From an uncultured Acidobacteriota bacterium (GTDB lineage Bacteria > Acidobacteriota > Blastocatellia > RBC074), in the NCBI GenBank assembly GCA_903862855.1, contig CAIOZW010000046.1, positions 18,587 to 82,586 of the forward strand: a DNA stretch of 64,000 nt, given 5' to 3'. The notes below the pieces were generated by a model, which was given only the letters and a program-made list of their open reading frames with translations, did no database searches and had not been told where the DNA came from. The translations under genes and the position numbers were made by a program. Each line of letters opens with the position of its first letter. Position 1 is the first letter of the stretch. Positions 8,113 to 58,286 of the stretch are shown here, piece by piece.

Positions 8113-9861
8113 GTGAGGTTGATGATGAAAAGGTTGATCATTCTACTTCTGGTATTGACCGCGGGGGCATTCAACCACGCGGAGGCTCAGGAATTGCCAC
8201 GAGTCGTGCTGATTGGAGACTCGATCCGTCTCGGCTATGCTCCAATCGTGGCCAAAAGACTGGAGGGGCGGGCGCAAGTGATCACCGCAGAGCAGAATGG
8301 CGGTGACAGCAGTCGCGTGCGGGCCAACCTCGCGCAGTGGGCGATCTCGGTGAGACCACAGGTCGTGCACTTCAACGCCGGCCTGCATGACCTGAAGCTG
8401 CTCAAGGCAAGCGGGAGACATCAGGTGCCACTCGACCAGTACCGGGAGAACCTGCGTGAGATCGCCGCTCGGCTGCAAAGGGAGACTTCAGCGCGAATCA
8501 TCTTTGCCGCAACGACTCCGATCATCGACGTGCGACATGCCGCGCGCAAAGCCGATTTTGACCGTCTCGAGGCAGATGTCCGCCGTTACAATACGGCCGC
8601 AGGCGAAGTGATGCGCGAAACTGGCATTCCGATCAACGACCTTCACTGGTTGGTCGATCGCGCCGGCACGGAGAGGCTGCTGCTGAAGGATGGCACCCAC
8701 TACACCCCTGAAGGGTATGAGCTCCTCGCCAGTGCAGTAGCCGATTCGATCATCCGACAGCTGACCATTCTCAACTATCGTCCGCTGCCGCCGCAACCTG
8801 CAGGCCCGGAGGCCGCTGCCGCCTACCAGAAGGCGGAGAGAGATCGTGATGCGCTCGTCCCGGAGCGCTACCGGATCGAGGTACCCGACTTCCCGCTGCC
8901 AAAGAGTCGAGCCGAGTGGCCACGCCAGCGGAAGGAGGTCGAACGGATCGTCGCCGCCTCGCTCGGAAATCTTCCCCCAAGACCAGTCAGGCAGAGGGTG
9001 CGAACGATCGCCCGCGAGGATCATCACGAATTTATCCTCGAGCGGGTGGCGATCGATAATGGCGTCGATGGAGAGATCTCGGCGCTGCTGCTGATCCCGG
9101 CGAATCTCTCCGGCCCGGCACCAGCCGTGCTCTGGCTCCACTCCTCGACGCCGGACAAGACACAGATCATCATTCCCGGAACCAATGGCGGCGCCGATTC
9201 ACTTGGTCTGGCTCTGGTACGACGCGGTTATGTCGTCTTCTCGCCTGACTCTTACTGGCATGGTGAGCGGGCCGGTACCGGCCCGTCGGGGTCGGCCGAG
9301 ACCGGATTCAATGAACAGCAGAGCCTCTTCAAGTACCATCTCTGGCAGGGCCGGACTCTGTGGGGGATGTTTGTCCGTGATGACCGGATTGCGCTCGACT
9401 ATCTGACCGCGCGGCCCGAGGTCGATGCGCGACGCATCGGAGCGACCGGAATGAGCATGGGCAGTACCCGGGCCTGGTGGCTGGCCGCCCTCGACCAGCG
9501 GATCGCCGCAACGGTTGGAGTCGCCTGCCTGACCCGCTACGAGAACCTGATCAACCACGGGGAGCTCCGCCAGCACGGAGTCTACTACTTTGTCAACGAT
9601 CTGCTCCGCCACTTTGACACTGAAGGGGTCATCTCGCTGATTGCTCCGCGCCCCTACCTCGCCCTGACCGGTGAGATCGATGCCGGTTCACCAGCCGACG
9701 GTATCAGAATCATCGACCAGGAGATGTCGAAGCTCTACCGGACTCTCGGCGCTGCCGAACGCTTCAGGAATGTCATCTACCCGGGTGTCGCCCACAGTTA
9801 TACGCCGGAGATGCGGGCCGCCACCCTCGACTGGTTCGATCGCTGGTTGAAGACCCCCTAA
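8113..9861 (+). CDS. Secreted bifunctional esterase: N-terminal SGNH/GDSL hydrolase fused to a C-terminal alpha/beta-hydrolase of the dienelactone hydrolase / acetyl-xylan-esterase type.
   Basis: Signal peptide, then VVLIGDSIRLGY (SGNH block I). The C-terminal half has a GMSMGS nucleophile elbow and a His near the C-terminus. Confidence 0.65.
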   Translation: MRLMMKRLIILLLVLTAGAFNHAEAQELPRVVLIGDSIRLGYAPIVAKRLEGRAQVITAEQNGGDSSRVRANLAQWAISVRPQVVHFNAGLHDLKLLKASGRHQVPLDQYRENLREIAARLQRETSARIIFAATTPIIDVRHAARKADFDRLEADVRRYNTAAGEVMRETGIPINDLHWLVDRAGTERLLLKDGTHYTPEGYELLASAVADSIIRQLTILNYRPLPPQPAGPEAAAAYQKAERDRDALVPERYRIEVPDFPLPKSRAEWPRQRKEVERIVAASLGNLPPRPVRQRVRTIAREDHHEFILERVAIDNGVDGEISALLLIPANLSGPAPAVLWLHSSTPDKTQIIIPGTNGGADSLGLALVRRGYVVFSPDSYWHGERAGTGPSGSAETGFNEQQSLFKYHLWQGRTLWGMFVRDDRIALDYLTARPEVDARRIGATGMSMGSTRAWWLAALDQRIAATVGVACLTRYENLINHGELRQHGVYYFVNDLLRHFDTEGVISLIAPRPYLALTGEIDAGSPADGIRIIDQEMSKLYRTLGAAERFRNVIYPGVAHSYTPEMRAATLDWFDRWLKTP

Positions 9862-29471: not shown

Positions 29472-29651
29472 AGGTCAAATTCGCCAGAATTCCTTAAGAT
29501 CCTTTAATATGTTCCACATTCGATTCTGAGTGCCATCCATTTTTCCCATATCCGTGACACATTCTCAACCAATTAAACAATCGTATGGTGAGATTTTCCG
29601 GTAGAAACCATCTTCACTTTGAATAGAATGTTTTTTGTGGAGGTAACTTTA

Positions 29652-30098
29652 ATGCCCTATTCCGAACTCTTGATCAAACCGATGCGCGAGGATCTGACGA
29701 ATGCCGGCATCGAGGAAGCGCGAACACCTGAGCTGGTTGACGAGGCCGTCAATGGCACGACGGGGACGCTGATGGTCGTTGTCAATTCGGTTTGTGGCTG
29801 CGCGGCCGGCAAAGCTCGCCCGGGGGTAGTCGACGCACTGCGCAATGATGTCCGCCCCGCCCGGACAATCACGGTCTTTGCTGGAGCAGACATTGCGGCC
29901 ACTGATCGTGCGCGGAGCTACTTCACTGGTTACCCGCCGTCATCCCCCTCAATCGCGCTCCTGAAGAATGGCAAACTTGTCTACATGATGGAGCGTTACC
30001 AGATCGAAGGACGCGATGCCCAACAGATCTCTGCCGAGTTGAAGAAGGCCTTCGATCTGTTCTGTCAAGCGCCCGGACAGATGGCCACCGGTGGCTGA
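29652..30098 (+). CDS. Bacilliredoxin-family protein (BrxA/BrxB, YphP/YqiW, DUF1094) with a CGC redox motif.
   Basis: TLMVVVNSVCGCAAG...TVFAGADI...YFTGYPPSSPSIALLKNGKLV closely matches the B. subtilis YphP/YqiW pattern. Start placed at ATG 29652. Confidence 0.7.
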   Translation: MPYSELLIKPMREDLTNAGIEEARTPELVDEAVNGTTGTLMVVVNSVCGCAAGKARPGVVDALRNDVRPARTITVFAGADIAATDRARSYFTGYPPSSPSIALLKNGKLVYMMERYQIEGRDAQQISAELKKAFDLFCQAPGQMATGG

Positions 30099-35518: not shown

Positions 35519-35548
35519 ATGCCAAAGATGCCTGGCTGGGGCTATAAT
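35519..35548 (+). promoter_or_regulatory. Candidate sigma70 promoter for the Mo-hydroxylase operon.
   Basis: ATGCCA, 18 nt spacer, perfect TATAAT at 35543-35548, about 60 nt upstream of the start. Confidence 0.3.
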
Positions 35549-35608
35549 CCGGTGTCTGTTTGTAATCACTATACCGTACATACCAAAACCATAATGGGAG
35601 GCATGCGC

Positions 35609-36263
35609 ATGAGCAGTTCAGATGAACGGCGCGATGAGGCTGAGAAGCCAGTTGTATCGCGGCGCAATTTTCTCAAAGGGACCGGAGTCGCCGGGGTCGC
35701 CCTGACAATACCGCTCGCTCCCGGAGCCGAGGCCCAGGCCGGCGTAGCCGGCGTGACGGTCATTGGTCCGGAGAGGAGCAAGATCACCCTCAACGTCAAT
35801 GGAACTCCGCGCGCGCTCGAGGTTGAGCCACGCGTGACGCTTCTTGATGCGCTGCGGAACGATCTGGACGTGACCGGAGCCAAGCGGGTCTGCGATCGGG
35901 CGACCTGTGGAGCCTGCTCGGTCATCCTTGACGGCAAGCTGGTCTACGGCTGCTCGGTCCTCGCGATCGAGGCCCAGGGTCGGAAGATCGAGACGGTCGA
36001 GAGCCTCGCCAGCAATGGCCAGCTCCATCCGGTCCAGAAGGCTTTTGTCGACAACGATGCGCAGCAGTGCGGATTCTGCACGCCAGGTTTCGTTATGGCC
36101 TGCAAGTCGCTGCTCGATCATCATCCGGAGCCCTCGGCTGATGATATACGGCTGGGACTCGGCGGCAATCTCTGCCGTTGCGGAACCTATGTCGGAATCA
36201 AGGCAGCGGTAGCCCAGGCGGCAACCGAGATGAAGAAGACCCGCACGAAAGGAGGCCGACGCA

Positions 36264-36271
<8 letters not shown>
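35609..36271 (+). CDS. Xanthine-dehydrogenase-family [2Fe-2S] small subunit with a TAT signal (CoxS/PaoA-like).
   Basis: SRRNFLKGTGVAGVALT TAT leader. Two 2Fe-2S Cys clusters (CGACS..., CGFCTPG, CRCGTY). GGGAGG RBS 7 nt upstream of ATG 35609. ATGA overlap with the large subunit. Confidence 0.85.
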
Positions 36272-38413
<2,142 letters not shown>

Positions 38414-38417
<4 letters not shown>

Positions 38418-39400
38418 ACAAGTTTGAATATGCCAGTCCAACCACTAAGGAGCAGGCGGTAGCGATGCTCGGCAAGGCCTGGGGAGAGACCGAGATCCTT
38501 GCCGGAGGGACTGATCTGCTCAGCCTGATGAAGGACTTTGTCGCCACTCCCCAGCGGATCGTCAACATCAAGGGGATCAAGGAGCTCTCGAGTCTCCAGA
38601 TTCTTCGTGATGGATCGGCCCGGATCGGTGCACTGGTGACCATTGACCAGCTGCTCGAGGCGACCCGGAAGAGCCATCCCGCGCTCTCCCAGGCTGCCGC
38701 CGGTATCGCCAGTCCGCAGATTCGCAACATGGGGACTGTTGCCGGAGACCTTTGCCAGCGCCCGCGCTGCTGGTACTACCGTGCCGGTTTCGGGCTGCTG
38801 GCCCGCAATGATGCCGGTCAGGCACTCGTTCCCAGTGGTGACAACCGTTACCACGCTATTCTTGGCAATAAGGGACCTGCTCTCTTCGTCAACCCCTCGT
38901 CACTCGCCCCGGCGCTCATCGCACTGGCGGCCAAGGTCCAGATCTTCGGCCCCGATGGCGCTCGTGAAGTGGAGGTCGAGAAGTTCTTCGTCGCTCCGCA
39001 ATCATCGGCTGATCGTGAGTATGCGCTCAAGTCGAACGAGCTGGTCACCGGGATTTCAATCCCCAAGTCGACCGGACTCCTCAGCGCAACCTATGAGGTA
39101 CGGCAACGTGAAGTCCTCGACTGGCCCCTGGCAGCTGCCTCGGTCGCCATCAAGCTCGATGCAGCCAAGAAGGTCACTTCGGCACGCATCGCGCTTGGAC
39201 ACGTCGCTCCAACCCCCTGGGTCGCGACGGAAGCGGCGTCGACTCTGATTGGCAAAACGATCAGTGAAGAGTCTGCGGTTGCTGCCGGCAAGCTGGCCAC
39301 AGCCGGGGCCCAGCCGCTCAGCCACAACGCCTACAAGGTCCAGCTTACCCAGGTCGCCGTCAAACGGGCGCTCCTCGCGGCGGCTGGCATTTCGGCCTGA
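38414..39400 (+). CDS. Xanthine-dehydrogenase-family FAD-binding medium subunit (CoxM/PaoB-like).
   Basis: FAD-binding PCMH domain with AGGTDLL and the CO-dehydrogenase flavoprotein C-terminal domain. ATGA overlap with the large subunit. Confidence 0.85.
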
Positions 39401-39414
39401 TCTGGAGGTAGAAG

Positions 39415-39636
39415 ATGACTGAATCAGAACGCTACGATACAAACCGTCCCAATCTCTGTCCTTCCCTCCGCTGGAAGGGAATGTTCATCTGGACGGAGCA
39501 CGACCCAACCGTTCAACGCTCCAATACCGGCAGCTTCTGGTGCTTCCACACTCAGAACTGTCTTGGACCTGACGGGAAGGTTGCTGAACCGGAATTTTGC
39601 TGCTCATCCGATCGCGGTTGCCATGCGCCGGAATGA
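39415..39636 (+). CDS. Small cysteine-rich hypothetical protein (73 aa, 6 Cys) immediately after the Mo-hydroxylase operon.
   Basis: GGAGG RBS 6-7 nt upstream of the ATG. Cys at positions 15, 43, 49, 62, 63 and 69. No recognisable family. Confidence 0.4.
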   Translation: MTESERYDTNRPNLCPSLRWKGMFIWTEHDPTVQRSNTGSFWCFHTQNCLGPDGKVAEPEFCCSSDRGCHAPE

Positions 39637-39783
39637 GTCAGTAAAATAAGAAACGTTTTCATATGGCCGTAAGGCTTGAAGGGCGGAGAGATCCTCGACT
39701 GTTGGCTCTCTTCGCTCTTCTTCTCTTTTTCCCCCGCGAGATCTGCACTGCAGATCCGACATTATTTGAGGAGGCTCTCACAA

Positions 39784-40458
39784 ATGAAAAGACTGGCGAT
39801 TCTTCCTGGTGTTTGCCTGTTGGGGATCTTGCTCACCACTGGCGTAATGGCTCAACAGATCCATGGTGATTACATCGAATCGCGAAATGCCGACGTCTAC
39901 ACCGGCCATTGCTTCGCGATGTCGGAACTGAATCTGGCCGGTGACCAGGCAATCCTTGCCTGGCGGGTCTCGAAGGGTGAATGGGACGGCGTGCCGCTTG
40001 ACGGACTGAGTGTCGTCGGTGTGACGCGGGCCTCGGGTACTCTCGGCAGCCCGTACAGCGAGAACCTGACCTCAAAGACCGTGCTCATCCTCGATGAGCG
40101 TGCCACTTCCGAACAGAGAAAAGCTCTCGCCTCACTTGCCCGGACGATGAGCGGAAACCTGCTCGATGATGTCGTCCGTACGGAGATCGCACCAATTCGG
40201 CTCGAGCTGGAGTTCATGGGTGAACATCCCAGTGGTGGTCGCGTCGAGGCCGGATCGATCGCCAGTATCGTCGCCCGCAGCCTGACGGCCAAGGACCATA
40301 TCTGCGGCAATGAACAGACCTACTATCCTCCTCTCGCTTCAACGGCTCATAGCATGCCTGTCGTCGCTTCACTCGACCAGTTCAATGGTGCCGGTCTTGG
40401 CGTCTCCTGGACGCTCCGAGGCAAGCGCAGTGCTTTTGTGGGCCATTTTGCCCGCTAG
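39784..40458 (+). CDS. Secreted hypothetical protein.
   Basis: Signal peptide MKRLAILPGVCLLGILLTTGVMAQQ, with a mature region starting HGDY.... No family assignable. Confidence 0.5.
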   Translation: MKRLAILPGVCLLGILLTTGVMAQQIHGDYIESRNADVYTGHCFAMSELNLAGDQAILAWRVSKGEWDGVPLDGLSVVGVTRASGTLGSPYSENLTSKTVLILDERATSEQRKALASLARTMSGNLLDDVVRTEIAPIRLELEFMGEHPSGGRVEAGSIASIVARSLTAKDHICGNEQTYYPPLASTAHSMPVVASLDQFNGAGLGVSWTLRGKRSAFVGHFAR

Positions 40459-40503
40459 ACCGGGATTGTTCAAAGACAGATCCGGGTCAACTTTGGAGTA
40501 GAA

Positions 40504-41160
40504 ATGTTCAAGCAAGTTCTGACAATGCTGTTCCTTTTTCTCTTCCTGCCTCTTACCGGACTTGGGGGAGATTACAAGGTCGAACCGATTGGCGAAATGG
40601 CCGCTTCACCAATCGCCGATTCAGTGCGGGGAGTCATCGATACCAAAGGGCTGCGGGTCATCGACAGCCAGGGAAAGACGGTCTGTGAGATCTGGCTGCG
40701 AAAGGAGATCCCGGGTGGAGCTGAAGAGGTCCCCGGGGCAGTCTTCTCGAAGATCGGTGAAGGCGCACTCGCCGGGGTGATCAATTTTCCAGGTAACGCT
40801 GGTGACTTCCGTGGACAGGGACTCAAGGCGGGCTGGTACACCATTCGTTACGGAATGATCCTTCAGGATGGTAACCATCTGGGAGTCTCGCCAACCCGTG
40901 ACTTCTTTGTTCTCTGCCCGGTTGCCGAGGACAGGGATCCGGAGAAAAAGCTCAGCTTCGAGGAGATGATGAAGATGAGCCGCAACGCCTCTGGCACCGG
41001 CCACCCGTCGTGCTGGAGCCTTGTTCCGGCGACGGACGAAAAAGGGCTTCCGCACATTGTCAAAAACGAACACGAGCACGTCGTCGTCGAGTTTATGCTC
41101 CCGATCAAGGGTGGTGCCTTGGCTGCTGGTCTCATCGTTGTCGGAAAGACGGAGGGCTGA
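40504..41160 (+). CDS. Secreted hypothetical protein.
   Basis: Signal peptide MFKQVLTMLFLFLFLPLTGLGGDY. 218 aa. Its stop overlaps the RBS of the next gene. Confidence 0.5.
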   Translation: MFKQVLTMLFLFLFLPLTGLGGDYKVEPIGEMAASPIADSVRGVIDTKGLRVIDSQGKTVCEIWLRKEIPGGAEEVPGAVFSKIGEGALAGVINFPGNAGDFRGQGLKAGWYTIRYGMILQDGNHLGVSPTRDFFVLCPVAEDRDPEKKLSFEEMMKMSRNASGTGHPSCWSLVPATDEKGLPHIVKNEHEHVVVEFMLPIKGGALAAGLIVVGKTEG

Positions 41161-41165
41161 TACTG

Positions 41166-41522
41166 ATGAAGATAACCTTCTTCTACAAGTCGACCTGAAC
41201 GACCTGTCGTAACGCGAGGAGTCTCCTCCGCGATGCAATGGGTGAAAAGGCTGCGAGCGGTCTCGTGGAACGTGACTATTCCAAAAAGCCGCTGACAGAG
41301 TGTGAGGTAAGAGAGATCTTTGGAGACGATGCTCTTCTCCCCTTCCTCAATTCGCGTCACGTGATATTCAAGGAACGTGGATTTGCGACCAGTCTCCCCC
41401 CGATCGAGGAGCTGATCGAACTGATCATTGGTGAGCCGAATCTGCTGCGTCGACCAATTCTTCGCCGTGGCAGAAAGTTTGTGATCGGGTCCGATCAGGA
41501 GGCGATCCGGGCACTGATCTGA
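41166..41522 (+). CDS. ArsC/Spx/YffB-family thioredoxin-fold protein with an in-frame TGA (41196-41198) at the first position of the redox motif (U-T-T-C). Candidate selenocysteine-containing protein, 118 aa.
   Basis: MKITFFYKST-[TGA]-TTCRNARSLL...LRRPIL...IGSDQEAI matches the family N-terminal pattern (IYxxxxCxTCRKA) with Sec in place of Cys. The reading frame is continuous across the TGA into the ORF-track ORF 41238-41522. GGAGGG RBS sits 11 nt upstream of ATG 41166. Confidence 0.6.
41213..41232 (+). promoter_or_regulatory. Candidate bacterial SECIS-like stem-loop 14 nt downstream of the in-frame UGA.
   Basis: cgcGAGGA-GUC-UCCUC(c)gcg: 5 bp GAGGA/UCCUC apical stem with a GUC loop, then 3 bp CGC/GCG separated by a bulged C. 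Position and G/U-containing loop resemble the fdhF-type SECIS. Confidence 0.4.
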
Positions 41523-41830: not shown

Positions 41831-41866
41831 CCCCGGGGATCTTCACCATTCTGAAGATCCCCGGGG
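41831..41866 (-). terminator. Rho-independent terminator for rne, in a bidirectional position.
   Basis: ccccggggatcttc-accattct-gaagatccccgggg 14 bp stem. On the minus strand it is followed by ttttctatttt. It sits 40 nt after the rne stop. Confidence 0.65.
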
Positions 41867-51935: not shown

Positions 51936-53567
51936 TCAAGACCGTTCATCACCATTTGACCGTTCCTCAATATTTGCAACAACTGGACCGAAGCCGCCAC
52001 CGCCCGGAGTCTCGATGCAGAGGCGAGTCCCAGCCTCCGCCTCGATCGAGAACTTGCCGGGGAGTGTCTGAAAAGATCGGCCCGGACGCCGGAGACGATT
52101 CAGCCCGCATTTGCCCGGTTCTCCGCCGGAGAGACCATAGGGTGCAAGCTGACGACGGTCGGAGAGGAGCGAGAGACGGGCAGGCGAGAGCAGTTCAATC
52201 TCGCGGATCAGTCCATCACCCCCCCGGTACCGGCCCAGGCCGCCCGAATGGCGGCGGATCTGATAGCGATGAACGAGGAGCGGATAGCTGTACTCGAGCG
52301 CCTCGACCGGGGTATTGAGCGAATTGGTCATATGGGAGTGGACAGCCGAGAGACCATGACTCGCGGGTCCAGCCCCCATTCCCCCGGCAAGCGTTTCGTA
52401 ATAGGCAAACTCTTGTCCAAGACGTGTGTCCCAACCCCCGATGGTCAGATTGTTCATGCTGCCCTGGGAGGCGGCTGGAATTCGATCCGGAAGAGCGCGG
52501 GAGAGGGCAAGTAGCAACACATCGACGATCCGCTGTGAGGTCTCGACATTTCCACCGGCGACTGCAGCCGGTGGAAGGGCGTTGACAATCGTTCCCGGTG
52601 GAGCAATCACTTCGAGCGGACTGAGCAGACCGGCACCGGCGGGGACATCAGCGTCGACCAGACAGCGGAAGACATAGAAGACCGCGGAGACGGTGATCGC
52701 CTCGACGGCATTGAGCGGTCCGGCCACCTGCGGCGAGCTTCCGGTAAAGTCGATGCGTGCCCGGTCGCCGGCGATGGTGATCCGCGCTGCGATGCGCACA
52801 GGCTGTAGACTCTCTCCATCATCATCGAGGTAGTCGATGGCCTCATAATCTCCATCAGGGATACTGGCGAGTGTCCGGCGCATGATGCGTTCGGCATAGG
52901 TGAAGAGATGGGCCGCATAGAGGCTGGTCTCGGCTCGTCCATACCGTTCGACGATCTCGAGAAGCCGCAGCTGTCCGACACGAATCGCCCCAAGCTGGGC
53001 GGCAAAGTCGCCTTCGCGCTCCTCCCGTCCCCGGACATTGGCCAGAAGAAGATCCCACAGATCCTGCACCAGTTCTCCACGCCGAACAAGGCGGACGGGA
53101 GGAATGCGCACTCCCTCCTGGTAGATCTCAGTTGCCGCCCCCATCGACCCCGGGGTCGCCCCGCCAATATCGGCGTGATGGGCACGGTTGGCCACATAGA
53201 AGAGAGGCTGGGTGGCTCCTTCGCTGTAGACTGGTGAAACCATGGTCACATCCGGAAGATGCGTCCCCCCGGCATAAGGGTCATTGAGGACGACGACGTC
53301 GCCGGGCGCGAACGGTCCACTCTCGATCGCCGCTCTGACAGACATGGGCATCGATCCAAGATGGACCGGCATGTGATCTCCCTGGGCAATCAGCCGACCT
53401 TCACGATCGAAGACCGCACAGGAGTAGTCACGCCGCTCCTTGATGTTGGGTGAAAAGGCAGTCCGACGCAGACTGACTCCCATCTCCTCGGCGACTGAGG
53501 TGAAGAGGGATCGAAAAATTTCCAGCTTGATCGAGTCCATTGGCGACGAATGCCTCATCCTGCTCAT
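51936..53567 (-). CDS. hyuB: Hydantoinase B / 5-oxoprolinase B-type subunit (HyuB family).
   Basis: HyuB family core (PDVTMVSPVY..., GGGGFG). Start at ATG 53567 forms an ATGA overlap with the upstream HEAT-repeat gene stop. Confidence 0.8.
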   Translation of the reverse strand: MSRMRHSSPMDSIKLEIFRSLFTSVAEEMGVSLRRTAFSPNIKERRDYSCAVFDREGRLIAQGDHMPVHLGSMPMSVRAAIESGPFAPGDVVVLNDPYAGGTHLPDVTMVSPVYSEGATQPLFYVANRAHHADIGGATPGSMGAATEIYQEGVRIPPVRLVRRGELVQDLWDLLLANVRGREEREGDFAAQLGAIRVGQLRLLEIVERYGRAETSLYAAHLFTYAERIMRRTLASIPDGDYEAIDYLDDDGESLQPVRIAARITIAGDRARIDFTGSSPQVAGPLNAVEAITVSAVFYVFRCLVDADVPAGAGLLSPLEVIAPPGTIVNALPPAAVAGGNVETSQRIVDVLLLALSRALPDRIPAASQGSMNNLTIGGWDTRLGQEFAYYETLAGGMGAGPASHGLSAVHSHMTNSLNTPVEALEYSYPLLVHRYQIRRHSGGLGRYRGGDGLIREIELLSPARLSLLSDRRQLAPYGLSGGEPGKCGLNRLRRPGRSFQTLPGKFSIEAEAGTRLCIETPGGGGFGPVVANIEERSNGDERS

Positions 53568-54460
53568 TTGACCAACGATTGAAGTATGAGTTGGGCCGCC
53601 TCGCGAACCCGCTGGTTCGCATCTGCGGCGGCAATCTCCTCGAGCATTGGTCGAACCTCCCCCTTCTTCCATTGAGCCAGCCACTCCATTGCCCTGATCC
53701 GCAGTTGTGGTGTTCCCTGTTTCCGGGCGATCCCGACCAGTTCGTGATATCCGTTCCGGGTCTTCTCGAGTTCGGCGACCGTTTCGATGACAATCGACTT
53801 CAACTGCGGCTCAGTGTAATCGGCAAAGGTGGTAAGAAAACCGATGCTCTTCCTCGAAAAACGGACATCGCGCAGCTGATTGACCATGAGGATCGCCTGA
53901 CAGCGAACACGGAGGTCATCACGATCAAGAATGCTCTGCATCCCGGGGTTGGCCATGAGGTTAAGAACGGTATTGCTGGCCTGGTAGACCTGGAGCGAGG
54001 CCAGGGTGCGTGTCAGAACAAATCGAACTCGCCAGTCCGGATCACGGGCAAGGCGGATGAGGGAGTCGACCAGTGGATCGGAGGCACTTTCGAGAGGCTG
54101 CGGCGGCGGGGCGACCCGCAGGTCGCGCAGCTGCCCGATCGCGACGATCGCTGCCCTGCGTATCTCCGGATCGTCGTCGGCGAGAACTCCTGTCACCGCC
54201 TCAAGTCCGGCCGGGTGGCAGAGTCGGGCGAGGCCATCGATCGCTTCGCGCCTCCGGAGTGGCGCCGTGGACTTCAACCCGGCCAAGGCCTCGGCAATCC
54301 GCTTCTCGGCTCCCGCGACCGGCCGACAAGGCTCAATGAGCGGCCGCGCGCGAATCTCAAGCTCCTCTGCGTCGTAACGCTGTGCGAGGACTGGCACGGA
54401 AAGGATCGATCCCCAGATCGTCAGCAGCAGGAGATATGCCGGGAGCTGCAGCTTTTTCAT
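53564..54460 (-). CDS. Secreted HEAT-repeat protein (PBS-lyase-like HEAT repeats).
   Basis: Signal peptide. Repeated DxxxxVRxxAxxALGxL HEAT-like units (DDDPEIRRAAIVAIGQL, DPDWRVRFVLTRTLASL). Confidence 0.6.
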   Translation of the reverse strand: MKKLQLPAYLLLLTIWGSILSVPVLAQRYDAEELEIRARPLIEPCRPVAGAEKRIAEALAGLKSTAPLRRREAIDGLARLCHPAGLEAVTGVLADDDPEIRRAAIVAIGQLRDLRVAPPPQPLESASDPLVDSLIRLARDPDWRVRFVLTRTLASLQVYQASNTVLNLMANPGMQSILDRDDLRVRCQAILMVNQLRDVRFSRKSIGFLTTFADYTEPQLKSIVIETVAELEKTRNGYHELVGIARKQGTPQLRIRAMEWLAQWKKGEVRPMLEEIAAADANQRVREAAQLILQSLVK

Positions 54461-54471
54461 GTCAACCTCAC

Positions 54472-55890
54472 TCAGACTGCCTTATCGGGATTTTGCGGGG
54501 TGAGTAGCTTGAGCGCCCGCGCATTATGCCCGAGGGCAATGACAATATCGCTGATGAATTTGTCACCCAGACTGCGCCGGAGCAATCCCCAGTCCATCCC
54601 GCGCAGCTTGGTGAGGCTTTCGTACATGGACTGGGCGCCGTAGGAGATGCGTCGCTCCTGCGCCGGCGTGAAGGTGACCAGCTCGTTGAGACGGGCGTAA
54701 TTGATGGCCTCGAACGCATGGCCGTACAGTTTGACGAGCGCCCGGGTCGTGAAGGCCTCGACCAGGTAGGATGCCGCACCGGCCGCCTCCTTCGTGTACT
54801 CATTCTGGATGGCCACGGCGTCACTCGTCAGCCGGTAGGTCAGAAGATCCATCATCTGCTTGACCCTTTGCGGCAGATCATTGTTACGGTAACCGTGCCT
54901 GAGTCCTGCCAGGAATCCATAGACCGAGTGAAGGCCGAAACAGCTATACTTCTTGATCTCGTTCCTGAACCCGGCCGGCGCCTCCCCGCCCTGCATGATC
55001 TGTTGCTCCCCAAGTGCGCAGGTGCTCTCATACTCTGCCAGACTCTGGTCGATGATCGCGGCAAGATCGATCTTTTCGTTCCAGGCATTTTTCCAGGAGG
55101 TCACGGCACCTGCCCCCGTCGCCGGATGGAGAACCGAGAAGGCGATCATGCCCCAGGGGAGATGCTCGTGAACAAGCTCTCCGCGCTGGTCTGCTACCTG
55201 GCCCGGCGCAACCTGCCGTTTATTCTGATAGCTCAGGTCATAGCGAAACTGGTCGTCGTCGAACCTGAAGAGATTCTGCGGATCACAACGAAAGAGCGCC
55301 TTTGCTCCGTCGACCACGTCACGCATGGTATAGCGTCGGTCACCAACCTGGACCGGCTGTTCGAGCGAGACTCCAGCCTCGAGGAAGGTCTTCAGAAAGC
55401 TGTTCTCGTGAACCTCCGCTTCACGCTTGAAGAAGACGTAACGGCGACCATTGACCTCACGATCGACCGCGTATCGTGTGCAGAGGTGCTCGACGCCATT
55501 CGTCCCATCGGCAAGCTGGAATCCCTTTCCAAAACCGCGAATGGCATGGATGATTGCCGATGGATTGTTCAGCTCGTGCGTGTAGAAGCGCAGCATATCA
55601 TCGCAGGCCGCCAGCGCATTCCCGGCATCAGCCGTTAGCAGCAGTGGGGGCAGATTTTTACCGGTTCCCGCAGCCGGTCGGGTCGGTGCAGTCGAGCCCT
55701 TCTTCTCATTTCGGGAGGCATACCATCCGGCAACCCCTGCTCCGACCAGCGCAACCGATCCGACCCCGGCCCAGATCAGCTGTCGCCGTCCCTGGTCTGC
55801 CTGATCGCCTGATCTGCGCCTCCCACGGTCACCAGCCTTTTTCACAACACCCTTTTGTCTGCCCTGTCCAATCTGCTTGTCACTCATCAT
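54472..55890 (-). CDS. Hypothetical membrane-anchored/periplasmic protein (basic N-tail, one TM or TAT-like RRQLIWAG segment). Unknown function, located inside the hydantoinase operon.
   Basis: 472 aa. No recognisable family. 11 nt from the downstream HEAT gene. Confidence 0.45.
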   Translation of the reverse strand: MMSDKQIGQGRQKGVVKKAGDRGRRRSGDQADQGRRQLIWAGVGSVALVGAGVAGWYASRNEKKGSTAPTRPAAGTGKNLPPLLLTADAGNALAACDDMLRFYTHELNNPSAIIHAIRGFGKGFQLADGTNGVEHLCTRYAVDREVNGRRYVFFKREAEVHENSFLKTFLEAGVSLEQPVQVGDRRYTMRDVVDGAKALFRCDPQNLFRFDDDQFRYDLSYQNKRQVAPGQVADQRGELVHEHLPWGMIAFSVLHPATGAGAVTSWKNAWNEKIDLAAIIDQSLAEYESTCALGEQQIMQGGEAPAGFRNEIKKYSCFGLHSVYGFLAGLRHGYRNNDLPQRVKQMMDLLTYRLTSDAVAIQNEYTKEAAGAASYLVEAFTTRALVKLYGHAFEAINYARLNELVTFTPAQERRISYGAQSMYESLTKLRGMDWGLLRRSLGDKFISDIVIALGHNARALKLLTPQNPDKAV

Positions 55891-56146
55891 CTTCCCCTGA
55901 TCCGATTATGAAACAAACTGTTACGATTTGCGCCTGCGCTGCGCGAGGTCGGGGATGCTCATCCGCTCGACCCGCCGGCAGCCTGACGCAGCTCGCCTGC
56001 ATCCTCGCCAGCCCTCTGATACGCCGCGGGTATCGACTCCGCGCCGGCCAGGCTCCGACCCGGCACAGATTACCACAACTCTCTCGCCCGAACACTGGTC
56101 AGGCAATGACCCGCCTGCTTCGCACGCCTCTCTCGCCTCAAACCTG

Positions 56147-58201
56147 TCATGACGCTGAACGCGAGATGATCAGGTTACCATATCGGTCGACAACCATCCC
56201 CCATCCGGTGGGAAGCAGAGTGGTCGATCCATACTCGACGATGATCGCCGGTCGACTGATCTCGTCTCCAGGATGGAGACTTGAACGATCATAGACCGGC
56301 AGAACGGTCGATCGGCGCCCAAGCCAGACGCGGGATGTTCCGGCCGGTTGGAGCCCTGAACCGGCGCGGCGCGGTCGCGCTGGCCGAAGTGGCGGCTTCT
56401 CGGTTATTCCAATGGCCCGCAGGCGCAGACTGACAATTTCGCTGCTTCTTGCCGGATTGGCATGACCGTAACGCTCCCGGTGGAGCCGGTGAAAAGTCTC
56501 CACCGGATTGCCGGCCGCCGGAACCAGCAGTTCATAGGACTGGCCCCGATAACGCATGGCCTGAAAGCGCTCCAGCCTCATCCGTGCCGAGTCGAACCCT
56601 TCCTGTCTCAATGCCTCAATGGCCTGCCTCTCCAGATCGGCAAAACCCTTCGCTGCAGCCAACTCGACCTCTCGGCCCACTCCCGATGCCTCCAGTGGCA
56701 GCATGACCGTCCGCGAAAAGTCCTTGACGACATCCGCCAGTAGAACGCCGAGCGCCGAAAATGCCCCCGGATCGGCGGGGATGAGGACCTGCGGAATACG
56801 GAGCGACTCGGCAAGGGCGACTGCGTGCAGCCCCCCACTCCCGCCAAATCCGACCAGCGTGAAGAGTCGCGGATCGTGTCCCCGTTCGACCGAGACCAGC
56901 CTGAGCGCCCTCTCCATGTTGGCATTGGCAATGCGCACCACACCCAGCGCCGCCTCGACCACCCCGATGCGACGCCCCGCAACCTCGCTCAAACGATCGG
57001 CCAGCCCCTGCAGCGCCTCCCGGGCTCTCGATTCATCAAGAACCATTCCACCATTGAGCAGCCCACCTCCGGCCAGCCTTCCCAGAATCAGATTGGCATC
57101 GGTCACGGTCGGCAGGCTCCCCCGACCATAGGCGGCCGGTCCCGGATCGGCCCCAGCCGACTCCGGGCCAACCCGCAGAGCCTGCCCCTCATCCACTCTC
57201 GCAATCGATCCGCCTCCTGCGCCGACCGTGTGAATATCGAGCACCGGTACGGCGACGGGGAGACCTGCGACCTGGGCTTCACTGGTCGTCGGGGCCTCTC
57301 CCAGACAGACCGCAACATCGGTCGATGTTCCACCCATATCGAATGTGATCAACCGGGAGATCCCGGCCAGCTTCGCGATCCTGGTCGCCGCCACCACGCC
57401 GCCTGCCGGACCGGAAAGGATCGTCCGGACCGGTTCCCGCGCCGCAACCTCGGCCGAAATAGATCCTCCCGACGACTGCATCACCCGAAGCCCTACTCTG
57501 CCCCCTCGACCATAATCGGTCAACCCATCTGCCAGTCGACCAAGGTATCGACTCATCCGTGGCGCGAGATAGGCATTGATCGCCAACGTCGAGACACGCT
57601 CATATTCACGATACTCGGGCAGTATTCGATTCGATACCGAGACAGGAATTCCAAGCTCACCGAGGCGCGTTGCAACCCGCTCCTCGTGCTCCGGATTGAC
57701 AAATGAGAAGAGCAGCGAGATGGCCACCGACTCGACGCGCGCCCGCCGCAATCTCTCCAGCAGACGCTCCAGTCCATCCTCTGACAGAGATCGATGTACC
57801 CTCCCATCCGCAAGGACCCTCTCCTGCACCCCAAACCTGAGCGGACCCGGTATCAGTGGATCTCGAACTCCCCGTGAATCTCTTCCCCGCCCCGTCAGAC
57901 TGTATGGCTCAGGCCGCGCCTGCCGACCGATCTCCAGCACATCCTCAAAGCCCTCCGTCGTTACCAGCGCGGTCCTGGCCCCCTTTCTCTCAAGCAGGGC
58001 ATTGGTCGCCACCGTCGTTCCGTGGACTACCTCTTTGAGTCCGGTTTCCACCCCACCACTGATCGCCGCAGCGATCCCGGCGAGGATCGCCCGCTCCGGC
58101 TCCTCCGGGGTCGAGGGGATCTTGAAGGCCCGCCGATGTCCTCCTTCCAGAACTACGAAATCGGTGAAGGTACCTCCCGTGTCGACCCCAATCCTTATCA
58201 T
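56147..58201 (-). CDS. hyuA: Hydantoinase A / 5-oxoprolinase A-type subunit (HyuA family).
   Basis: MIRIGVDTGGTFTDFVVL N-terminal ASKHA-fold motif. Start trimmed to ATG 58201, with GGAGAGG SD 7 nt upstream. Confidence 0.8.
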   Translation of the reverse strand: MIRIGVDTGGTFTDFVVLEGGHRRAFKIPSTPEEPERAILAGIAAAISGGVETGLKEVVHGTTVATNALLERKGARTALVTTEGFEDVLEIGRQARPEPYSLTGRGRDSRGVRDPLIPGPLRFGVQERVLADGRVHRSLSEDGLERLLERLRRARVESVAISLLFSFVNPEHEERVATRLGELGIPVSVSNRILPEYREYERVSTLAINAYLAPRMSRYLGRLADGLTDYGRGGRVGLRVMQSSGGSISAEVAAREPVRTILSGPAGGVVAATRIAKLAGISRLITFDMGGTSTDVAVCLGEAPTTSEAQVAGLPVAVPVLDIHTVGAGGGSIARVDEGQALRVGPESAGADPGPAAYGRGSLPTVTDANLILGRLAGGGLLNGGMVLDESRAREALQGLADRLSEVAGRRIGVVEAALGVVRIANANMERALRLVSVERGHDPRLFTLVGFGGSGGLHAVALAESLRIPQVLIPADPGAFSALGVLLADVVKDFSRTVMLPLEASGVGREVELAAAKGFADLERQAIEALRQEGFDSARMRLERFQAMRYRGQSYELLVPAAGNPVETFHRLHRERYGHANPARSSEIVSLRLRAIGITEKPPLRPARPRRAGSGLQPAGTSRVWLGRRSTVLPVYDRSSLHPGDEISRPAIIVEYGSTTLLPTGWGMVVDRYGNLIISRSAS

Positions 58202-58286
58202 TCCGTGCCTCTCCCGTCGCCCCATTCTTCTCAATCCCCATCTCGATGATTTTGTCCCGGAACCGTTCACGGCTCCTCCCTGAGTC

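Follow-up and report, generated by a model that had tools for sequence, protein, structure and literature searches.

We analysed a 64 kb stretch of DNA (hereafter the window) from an uncultured Acidobacteriota bacterium, focusing on a short gene of the ArsC/Spx superfamily whose reading frame contains an internal UGA codon (Table 1). This gene very probably encodes a cytoplasmic protein of 118 residues with an ArsC/Spx fold, in which the UGA at codon 11 is decoded as selenocysteine (Sec, U) through SelB and a hairpin located downstream in the mRNA. The evidence consists of the gene structure, the conservation of the UGA, its exact correspondence with a cysteine codon in a few orthologues, a covarying hairpin that occurs only in UGA-containing members, and the fold of the protein.

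The coding sequence opens with an ATG and ten sense codons (MKITFFYKST) followed by the internal TGA, after which the same frame stays open for 107 more codons up to a second TGA. The original prediction had described a short open reading frame (ORF) with a ribosome-binding site that ends at the first TGA and continues in frame beyond it, and a direct reading of the sequence confirms this. The gene upstream, which encodes a secreted protein of 218 residues (p218), ends with a TGA at 41158-41160, leaving a gap of 5 nt before the ATG. This suggests that the two genes are co-transcribed and translationally coupled in this genome. As p218 and the gene itself both terminate with TGA, TGA is a normal stop codon in this genome, and the internal TGA therefore requires a special context. 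A reassignment of TGA in the genetic code was considered and is ruled out by the same two stop codons.

The internal TGA is conserved across a wide range of bacteria. A scan of GTDB, with one genome per species, yielded 80 loci from Acidobacteriota (mostly Blastocatellia), Myxococcota (Kofleriaceae, Nannocystaceae, and Polyangiaceae), and two Planctomycetota. At the position of the putative Sec codon, 76 of the 80 species-level loci have TGA, three have TGC, and one is cut by the end of its contig; the same TGA is also present at the same codon in several metagenome contigs. A protein search recovered 23 relatives, of which 22 are N-terminally truncated gene calls of 75 to 95 residues that lack at least the N-terminal 20% of the query. 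The only full-length protein among them (P0021) is a Cys form of 116 residues. The contig DNA of the truncated relatives contains an in-frame TGA preceded by the conserved beta-strand peptide (e.g., FYYKST*TTCRNARSFLR). The Cys orthologues (P0021/L010, L055, L076, and L093) are uninterrupted proteins of 113 to 120 residues with a TGC exactly at the position of the TGA in the other members, which establishes the Sec/Cys column correspondence that had been proposed as a check. Among 79 distinct UGA forms, the residues K-3, T-1, T+1, C+3, and R+4 around the UGA are invariant while third codon positions vary, and the pattern of entropy across codon positions is alike upstream and downstream of the UGA. 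This indicates that both flanks of the UGA are translated in one frame under purifying selection. The base directly following the UGA is an A in all 79 forms.

A hairpin resembling a bacterial selenocysteine insertion sequence (SECIS) lies shortly after the UGA, within the region coding for helix alpha1. It spans +18 to +37, counted from the first base of the UGA, in all 79 distinct UGA forms (dG of -8.4 to -14.2) and in none of the four Cys forms, and the loop dinucleotide GU at +26/+27 has the same distribution (79/79 and 0/4). Codons +8, +9, and +11 show almost no variation at their third positions. The UGA forms use at least seven different stem sequences: CGCCAGGA/UCCUG-CG, CGCGAGG/CCUUGCG, CGCGCGG/CUGCGCG, CGUACGA/UCGUACG, CGCACGC/GCGUGCG, UGCACGA/UCGUGCA, and GCGCGCGA/UCGUGCGC. 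An extended lower stem was found in the window and in three of its closest relatives (L006, L008, and L015) and is not conserved across the family, so it appears to be optional. A natural control is provided by two members with similar peptides in this region. The Sec form L058 encodes V-R-G-L-V-R as GUA CGA GGU CUC GUA CGC, which forms a perfect hairpin with a GGUC loop, whereas the Cys form L010 encodes V-R-G-F-V-R as GUC CGC GGG UUC GUG CGC, which has no such hairpin. As the hairpin overlaps the codons for helix alpha1, its changes go along with changes in the peptide (A-R-S-[FS]-L-R versus V-R-G-L-V-R). A crude scan of the window for other in-frame UGA codons followed by a hairpin returned only out-of-frame noise and no further selenoprotein gene. 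Searching every locus for the same loop motif likewise gave nothing but out-of-frame noise.

The hairpin is similar to the SECIS element of Escherichia coli fdhF in that both are coding-region hairpins just 3' of the UGA whose apical loop presents a G-U, and the Myxococcota members have the same GGUC tetraloop closed by an A-U pair. G23 and U24 of the fdhF loop are presumably the bases contacted by SelB. The stem sequence of the family hairpin is dictated by the A-R-S-x-L-R codons, and it has no evident equivalent of the bulged U of the fdhF element. In fdhF (read from NC_000913.3) the GGUC loop spans +22 to +25 with the GU at +23/+24, so the GU of the family described here is located one codon further downstream. 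The stem-loop originally predicted 14 nt after the UGA, at a distance typical of SECIS elements, is present in every UGA form with a geometry comparable to that of fdhF.

Covariation was evaluated on an alignment (A2) of 68 distinct 45-nt stretches using a 7-bp register. In total, 86% of cells were paired, double compensatory changes were found in four of the seven pairs, the observed score was reached by none of 500 shuffles, and every slid control scored lower. Several points weigh against reading the UGA as Sec. These covariation counts are not independent events because they are drawn from related coding sequences. The stem register also differs between clades, as stems of Acidobacteriota contain a bulge and are offset by one or two bases relative to those of Myxococcota; when the second register was applied to the whole alignment no covariation was observed, and the two clades use slightly different registers. 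The 71-nt fold of the single sequence is thermodynamically unremarkable (z = -1.45), so the significance of the hairpin comes from comparative data and not from thermodynamics. Comparison with bacterial SECIS covariance models, which had been suggested as a check, gave no Rfam match, either for the window at gathering thresholds or for positions 41150-41300 at E<=10. The bacterial SECIS models in Rfam are presumably built from particular lineages and genes, in which case this miss is weak negative evidence. Finally, no selA, selB, selD, or tRNA-Sec gene was detected in the 64 kb window using Pfam searches of about 45 ORFs, ARAGORN, and tblastn.

The predicted product, with U read as C, matches the Pfam family PF03960 (ArsC) over residues 7-116 (E=1.4e-12; 48.2 bits, cut-off 24). 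An alignment with Bacillus subtilis Spx (PDB 1z3e, E=7e-10) covers the whole protein and places U11 on Cys10 and C14 on Cys13, and the 118-residue ArsC/Spx-type product with a TGA at the first active-site cysteine is thus as originally described. The protein is predicted to be cytoplasmic because it has no signal peptide. An AlphaFold2 model was made of the Cys orthologue P0021, using alignment A5. The model has a mean predicted local distance difference test score (pLDDT) of 90.4, with strand beta1 at residues 3-7, the CxxC motif (residues 11-14) at the N-terminus of a helix (residues 12-23), and then the usual ArsC/Spx helical insertion followed by beta3-beta4. A Foldseek search with this model ranked Spx first (1z3e, template modelling (TM) score 0.87), followed by the ArsC-family proteins 3f0i (0.85), YffB (1rw1, 0.83), and E. 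coli ArsC (0.81). A profile of the family gave a similar picture (Spx, E=6e-20; ArsC R773, about 5e-5). The window protein falls below the cut-offs of all curated NCBIfam models: NF002459 (Spx; 46.7 versus 123 bits), TIGR00014 (arsC; 37.9 versus 106 bits), TIGR01617 (Spx/MgsR; 36.2 versus 75.05 bits, with the CxxC at positions 10-13 present as UxxC), and NF041106 (ArsC family (seleno)protein, ArsC_rel_Se_1; 25.8 versus 85 bits). The best E-value of NF041106 over 27 family members was 1.2e-11. The superfamily assignment of the original prediction therefore stands, with the refinement that the nearest relatives are of the Spx/MgsR type and not arsenate reductases proper.

Given this affinity, the protein might be an Spx/MgsR-type regulator that binds the C-terminal domain of the RNA polymerase alpha subunit and uses a Sec-Cys pair as a redox-sensing switch, with no enzymatic activity. 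Spx is the top match in both sequence and structure, NF002459 and TIGR01617, the best hits in NCBIfam, are both Spx models, and the CxxC motif, the R of S/T-R, and the LLRRPI motif are common to the family and Spx. Moreover, L100, a more distant relative that contains Sec, passes TIGR01617 when its U is read as C (78.4 versus 75.05 bits). However, the window protein itself scores less than half of that cut-off, and characterised Spx proteins come from Firmicutes whereas this family is found in Gram-negative phyla. The column aligned with Spx Gly52, which we take to be the contact with the alpha subunit C-terminal domain, varies between A, P, D, and G, in a segment that is two residues shorter than in Spx. 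In the alignment the protein ends at about Spx residue 113, and thus lacks the C-terminal tail (about 115-131) that presumably acts as the ClpXP/YjbH degradation signal. Judging from these alignments, the lack of conservation at the Gly52 position and the absence of the C-terminal tail leave Spx-type regulation possible but unsupported, and we regard it as improbable. Somewhat more doubtful is the stronger version of this proposal, in which the protein would be an Spx-like global regulator of Gram-negative soil and freshwater bacteria with a Sec11-Cys14 selenenylsulfide as its sensor, that is, a selenium-dependent transcription factor that binds RNA polymerase. A weaker alternative is that the protein could be a dedicated cytoplasmic partner of the upstream gene cluster in Acidobacteriota.

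A further reading, which we consider less probable again, is that the protein is an arsenate reductase coupled to glutaredoxin or to a low-molecular-weight thiol, with Sec replacing the catalytic Cys12. The protein is a member of PF03960, and in alignment with E. coli ArsC, U11 falls on Cys12 and R96 on Arg94. We take the Arg60/Arg94/Arg107 triad to be a feature of arsenate reductases, and PDB entries for R60A/R60K and C12S mutants are consistent with this. In the family, however, S, F, or K occupies the Arg107 column, and Arg60 is out of register with the invariant arginine. The score against TIGR00014 is far below its cut-off, the motif is UxxC as in Spx and not CxxS, and there are no ars genes nearby in the window, even though a family of arsenate reductase selenoproteins with a UxxS motif is known (PMC2398784). 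As far as its sequence allows a judgement, the protein is not a canonical arsenate reductase because of the substitutions in the Arg107 column.

In the reading that we favour, a UGA decoded as Sec in a thiol oxidoreductase-like protein, SelB tethered to the hairpin just past the UGA would deliver Sec-tRNA(Sec) to codon 11, with the hairpin presenting its loop GU (+26/+27) to SelB. The resulting U11-T-T-C14 centre would be located at the N-terminus of helix alpha1, where Sec11 is most likely the exposed nucleophile. Sec11 and Cys14 may then form a selenenylsulfide during thiol/selenol-disulfide exchange or a reductase cycle, as in other UxxC selenoproteins with a thioredoxin fold. The window also contains a gene for a bacilliredoxin of the BrxA/BrxB family at 29619-30098 on the plus strand (PF06491; TIGR04191 at 194 bits, cut-off 100). 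This hints that the acidobacterium uses a low-molecular-weight thiol of the bacillithiol type, and such a thiol may serve to reduce the ArsC/Spx-like selenoprotein.

Incorporation of Sec requires dedicated machinery, and we extended the search for it to the related loci. ARAGORN identified no tRNA-Sec gene in the window or in 84 loci, and the only tRNA gene in the window is a tRNA-Met. When E. coli SelA, SelB, and SelD were used as tblastn queries against the window and 1.3 Mb of loci, the sole match was a selA gene (44% identity; TIGR00474, 573 bits against a cut-off of 268) on L025, a contig of an Acidobacteriota metagenome-assembled genome (MAG). This gene is located 5 kb downstream of that contig's own UGA-containing orthologue. 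Within positions 7316-10227 of L025, selA (8216-9616) is flanked by genes for a CysQ-like phosphatase and a Fur-family regulator, and the remaining 2 kb of the contig contain no selB or tRNA-Sec gene. Published surveys of Sec-decoding bacteria list Acidobacteria as well as lineages of deltaproteobacteria, among them Anaeromyxobacter (PMC1794560). With regard to the genome studied here, the selA gene and these published lineages are supportive but not proof.

The UGA could also be recoded without Sec, if Cys or Ser were inserted by a tRNA(Cys) that resembles tRNA(Sec) (selC*) or by an allo-tRNA of Acidobacteria. The Sec machinery was not found in the window, and both allo-tRNAs of Acidobacteria and selC* tRNA(Cys) of deltaproteobacteria have been reported (PMC5389517). 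On the other hand, the strictly conserved SelB-type hairpin with its loop GU argues for delivery by SelB, one orthologue has selA beside it, and the lineages that use Cys carry TGC and have lost the hairpin. The reported selC* genes, moreover, come from anaerobic Firmicutes, Thermodesulfobacteria, Nitrospirae, and Proteobacteria, and not from Acidobacteria (PMC5389517). Overall, we consider non-Sec recoding to be very unlikely.

It is more unlikely still that the UGA is a true stop codon, which would leave a 10-codon upstream ORF and an independent protein of 94 residues starting at the ATG at 41238. That ATG exists, and the proteins of this family in databases are N-terminally truncated to 75 to 95 residues, except for the full-length Cys form P0021. 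However, in 67 of 79 relatives the 29 codons after the UGA contain no in-frame ATG, so the start chosen by gene callers is not a conserved feature; an independent start at this position had been named as an outcome that would contradict the original prediction. Both the 10 codons before the UGA and the 13 codons between the UGA and the ATG are under purifying selection at the amino acid level, the Cys orthologues are continuous, and a 94-residue product would be without strand beta1, the CxxC motif, and helix alpha1. The possibilities of a pseudogene and of an error in sequencing or assembly are effectively refuted, since, although TGA is one base away from TGC and TGT and Cys forms exist, about 80 assemblies made independently in different projects and covering three phyla have the identical TGA, the hairpin is tied to the UGA, and the frame is not otherwise disrupted.

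Table 1. Features of the selenoprotein gene and of its surroundings, in window coordinates.
Feature	Position	Strand	Remark
Shine-Dalgarno-like GGAGGG	41151-41156	+	9 nt before the ATG, within the 3' end of the p218 gene; read from the sequence
Full coding sequence of the predicted ArsC/Spx-fold selenoprotein	41166-41522	+	118 codons including Sec11; stop codon TGA at 41520-41522
In-frame UGA predicted to be read as Sec (U11)	41196-41198	+	First residue of the U-T-T-C redox motif
Codon of Cys14 (TGT), partner in U-x-x-C	41205-41207	+	Cys invariant in 79/79 distinct UGA forms, third codon position variable
SECIS-like apical hairpin CGCGAGGA-GUC-UCCU(C)CGCG	41213-41232	+	14 nt after the UGA, inside the helix alpha1 coding region (N-A-R-S-L-L-R)
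Loop G-U	41221-41222	+	+26/+27 from the U of the UGA; likely SelB contact
Extended lower stem around the apical hairpin	41202-41243	+	From minimum free energy folds
ATG chosen by gene callers	41238-41240	+	Judged wrong; gives the truncated 94-residue database proteins
Upstream co-directional cluster, whole	35519-41160	+	Context, not demonstrably part of selenoprotein function
2Fe-2S subunit with twin-arginine (TAT) signal, PaoABC-like hydroxylase	35519-36271	+	
Molybdenum (Mo)-binding subunit, PaoABC-like hydroxylase	36264-38417	+	
FAD subunit, PaoABC-like hydroxylase	38414-39400	+	
Cys-rich 73-residue protein (p73)	39415-39636	+	
Secreted DUF1326 protein	39784-40458	+	
Secreted 218-residue protein (p218)	40504-41160	+	No family match
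Perfect 15-bp GC-rich palindromic hairpin CCCCGGGGATCTTCA...TGAAGATCCCCGGGG	41831-41866		Between the selenoprotein gene and the convergent RNase E/G gene

The gene follows a co-directional cluster that encodes a PaoABC-like Mo hydroxylase and three further proteins. The order of this cluster is kept upstream of the selenoprotein gene in about 35 Acidobacteriota loci, and the genes for RNase E/G and RodA on the downstream side, which are unrelated, are kept likewise. In some Acidobacteriota, 1.3 to 3.4 kb of other genes are inserted or there is no Pao cluster within 10 kb (L020 and L047). The cluster was found in none of the Myxococcota or Planctomycetota loci, and Myxococcota loci have no neighbour conserved across the family, with local synteny only among close relatives. 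We therefore rejected a functional operon with the Mo hydroxylase as a trait of the family, as the linkage is absent from two phyla and the RNase E/G and RodA genes are equally syntenic. The linkage is thus synteny within a lineage and does not speak for a common function, although the genes are plausibly co-transcribed in this genome. The position of the gene after a Mo-hydroxylase operon and two secreted proteins was correctly noted in the original prediction, and this arrangement can now be confined to Acidobacteriota. The palindrome downstream of the gene is likely a bidirectional intrinsic terminator.

The Mo hydroxylase is closest to models of the periplasmic aldehyde oxidoreductase PaoABC, XdhABC, and 4-hydroxybenzoyl-CoA reductase, but falls far below all equivalog cut-offs, and no maturation gene of the XdhC/PaoD type adjoins it. 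The p73 protein has six cysteines including a CC pair, no signal peptide, and no match in Pfam, NCBIfam, or PDB; its gene directly follows the FAD-subunit gene in Acidobacteriota loci, with 53-97% identity. The DUF1326 protein and p218 have cleavable-looking signal peptides and form a conserved cluster with the Mo hydroxylase. Sequence searches of PDB with p73, the DUF1326 protein, and p218 returned nothing significant. Several MAGs titled 'uncultured Heliomicrobium sp.' or 'Heliobacteriaceae' (L016, L023, L031, L036, and L054) carry the syntenic block of the Acidobacteriota type, comprising the PaoABC-like, p73, DUF1326, p218, and RNase E/G genes with 84-88% identity, and their taxonomic labels look wrong. 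Elsewhere in the window, a hydantoinase/oxoprolinase B and A pair (PF02538 and PF01968) is encoded on the minus strand at 51936-58270, and between its two genes there are two ORFs without a family match, at 53540-54643 (plus strand) and 54472-55890 (minus strand).

Bacterial selenoproteins arise most commonly when Sec takes the place of Cys in the UxxC motif of a protein with a thioredoxin fold, and the gene described here changes no concept and is not conceptually surprising. Recognising it nevertheless corrects a systematic mis-annotation, as all members recovered from the protein database except one full-length Cys form are calls of 75 to 95 residues without an active site. It adds an Spx/MgsR-like branch to the selenoproteins of the ArsC superfamily, and extends the predicted use of Sec to soil and freshwater bacteria, namely many uncultured Acidobacteriota (Blastocatellia) and Myxococcota and some Planctomycetota, lineages in which the Sec form is far commoner than the Cys form (76 to 3). 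In this family, nature also provides a clear case of co-evolution between a SECIS element and the peptide that it encodes (A-R-S-x-L-R versus V-R-G-L-V-R).

The truncation is not limited to close relatives. A profile search of 1.84 billion cluster representatives returned 769 relatives, and of the best 149 of these, 74 (about half) are truncated just after helix alpha1 in the same way, 43 are full-length proteins with a CxxC motif, and 32 are fragments or other forms. The DNA of two distant truncated relatives (L100 and L102) was checked, and both have a UGA at the same site (T-U-[TG]-S-C-K-K) followed by a hairpin (GCAAGA-AGUU-UCUUGC) with its GU at +26/+27. Since these distant relatives share the UGA and the hairpin, and L100 passes TIGR01617, the window gene is one branch of a broad and largely unannotated group of Spx/MgsR-like Sec proteins.

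Selenoproteins of the ArsC superfamily have been known since 2005-2008 (PMC1794560, PMC2398784, PMC9312934, PMC13188914). Those described as 'ArsC-like' and 'Arsenate reductase 2' are UxxC proteins, a type that a 2026 review now places under NF041106, and include members from Desulfuromonas acetoxidans and Desulfotalea psychrophila (Zhang et al. 2006, PMC1794560) and from Global Ocean Sampling (GOS) data ('Arsenate reductase 2', PMC2398784). The table of that review has no entry for TIGR01617, PF03960, or the four CDD accessions that we searched, and our literature search found no paper containing both Spx and selenoprotein. The family described here resembles the published UxxC proteins in belonging to the ArsC/Spx superfamily and in having Sec in place of the first Cys of an N-terminal CxxC motif, and both sets have been predicted by bioinformatics only. 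They differ in their motifs, which are G-U-T-S-C-T-K...GN[LM]RAPT in the published proteins and K-S-T-U-T-[TS]-C-R...LN-T-R-H...EPNLLRRPI in this family, and the window protein is only 18% identical to the Desulfuromonas member, which places it in a different subfamily. 'Arsenate reductase 1' from GOS is a UxxS protein of the TIGR00014 type (PMC2398784). It is likewise an ArsC family member with Sec at the position of the catalytic Cys12, but its motif is H-N-P-x-U-G-x-S-R without a second Cys, it is 27% identical to the window protein, and it has kept the arsenate reductase character that this family has not.

The best match by both sequence and structure is B. subtilis Spx (1z3e, 3gfk, and 6ghb), together with TIGR01617. 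The C10-x-x-C13 switch of Spx aligns with U11-x-x-C14, and S/T-R and LLRRPI are found in both. The window protein differs from Spx in having Sec in place of Cys10, in its identity of 29%, in its sub-threshold score on TIGR01617, and in its unconserved Gly52 position and missing C-terminal tail, and Spx is from Firmicutes whereas the window family is from Acidobacteriota, Myxococcota, and Planctomycetota. The gene adds a new subfamily member, apparently not yet curated, to a familiar class of bacterial selenoproteins.

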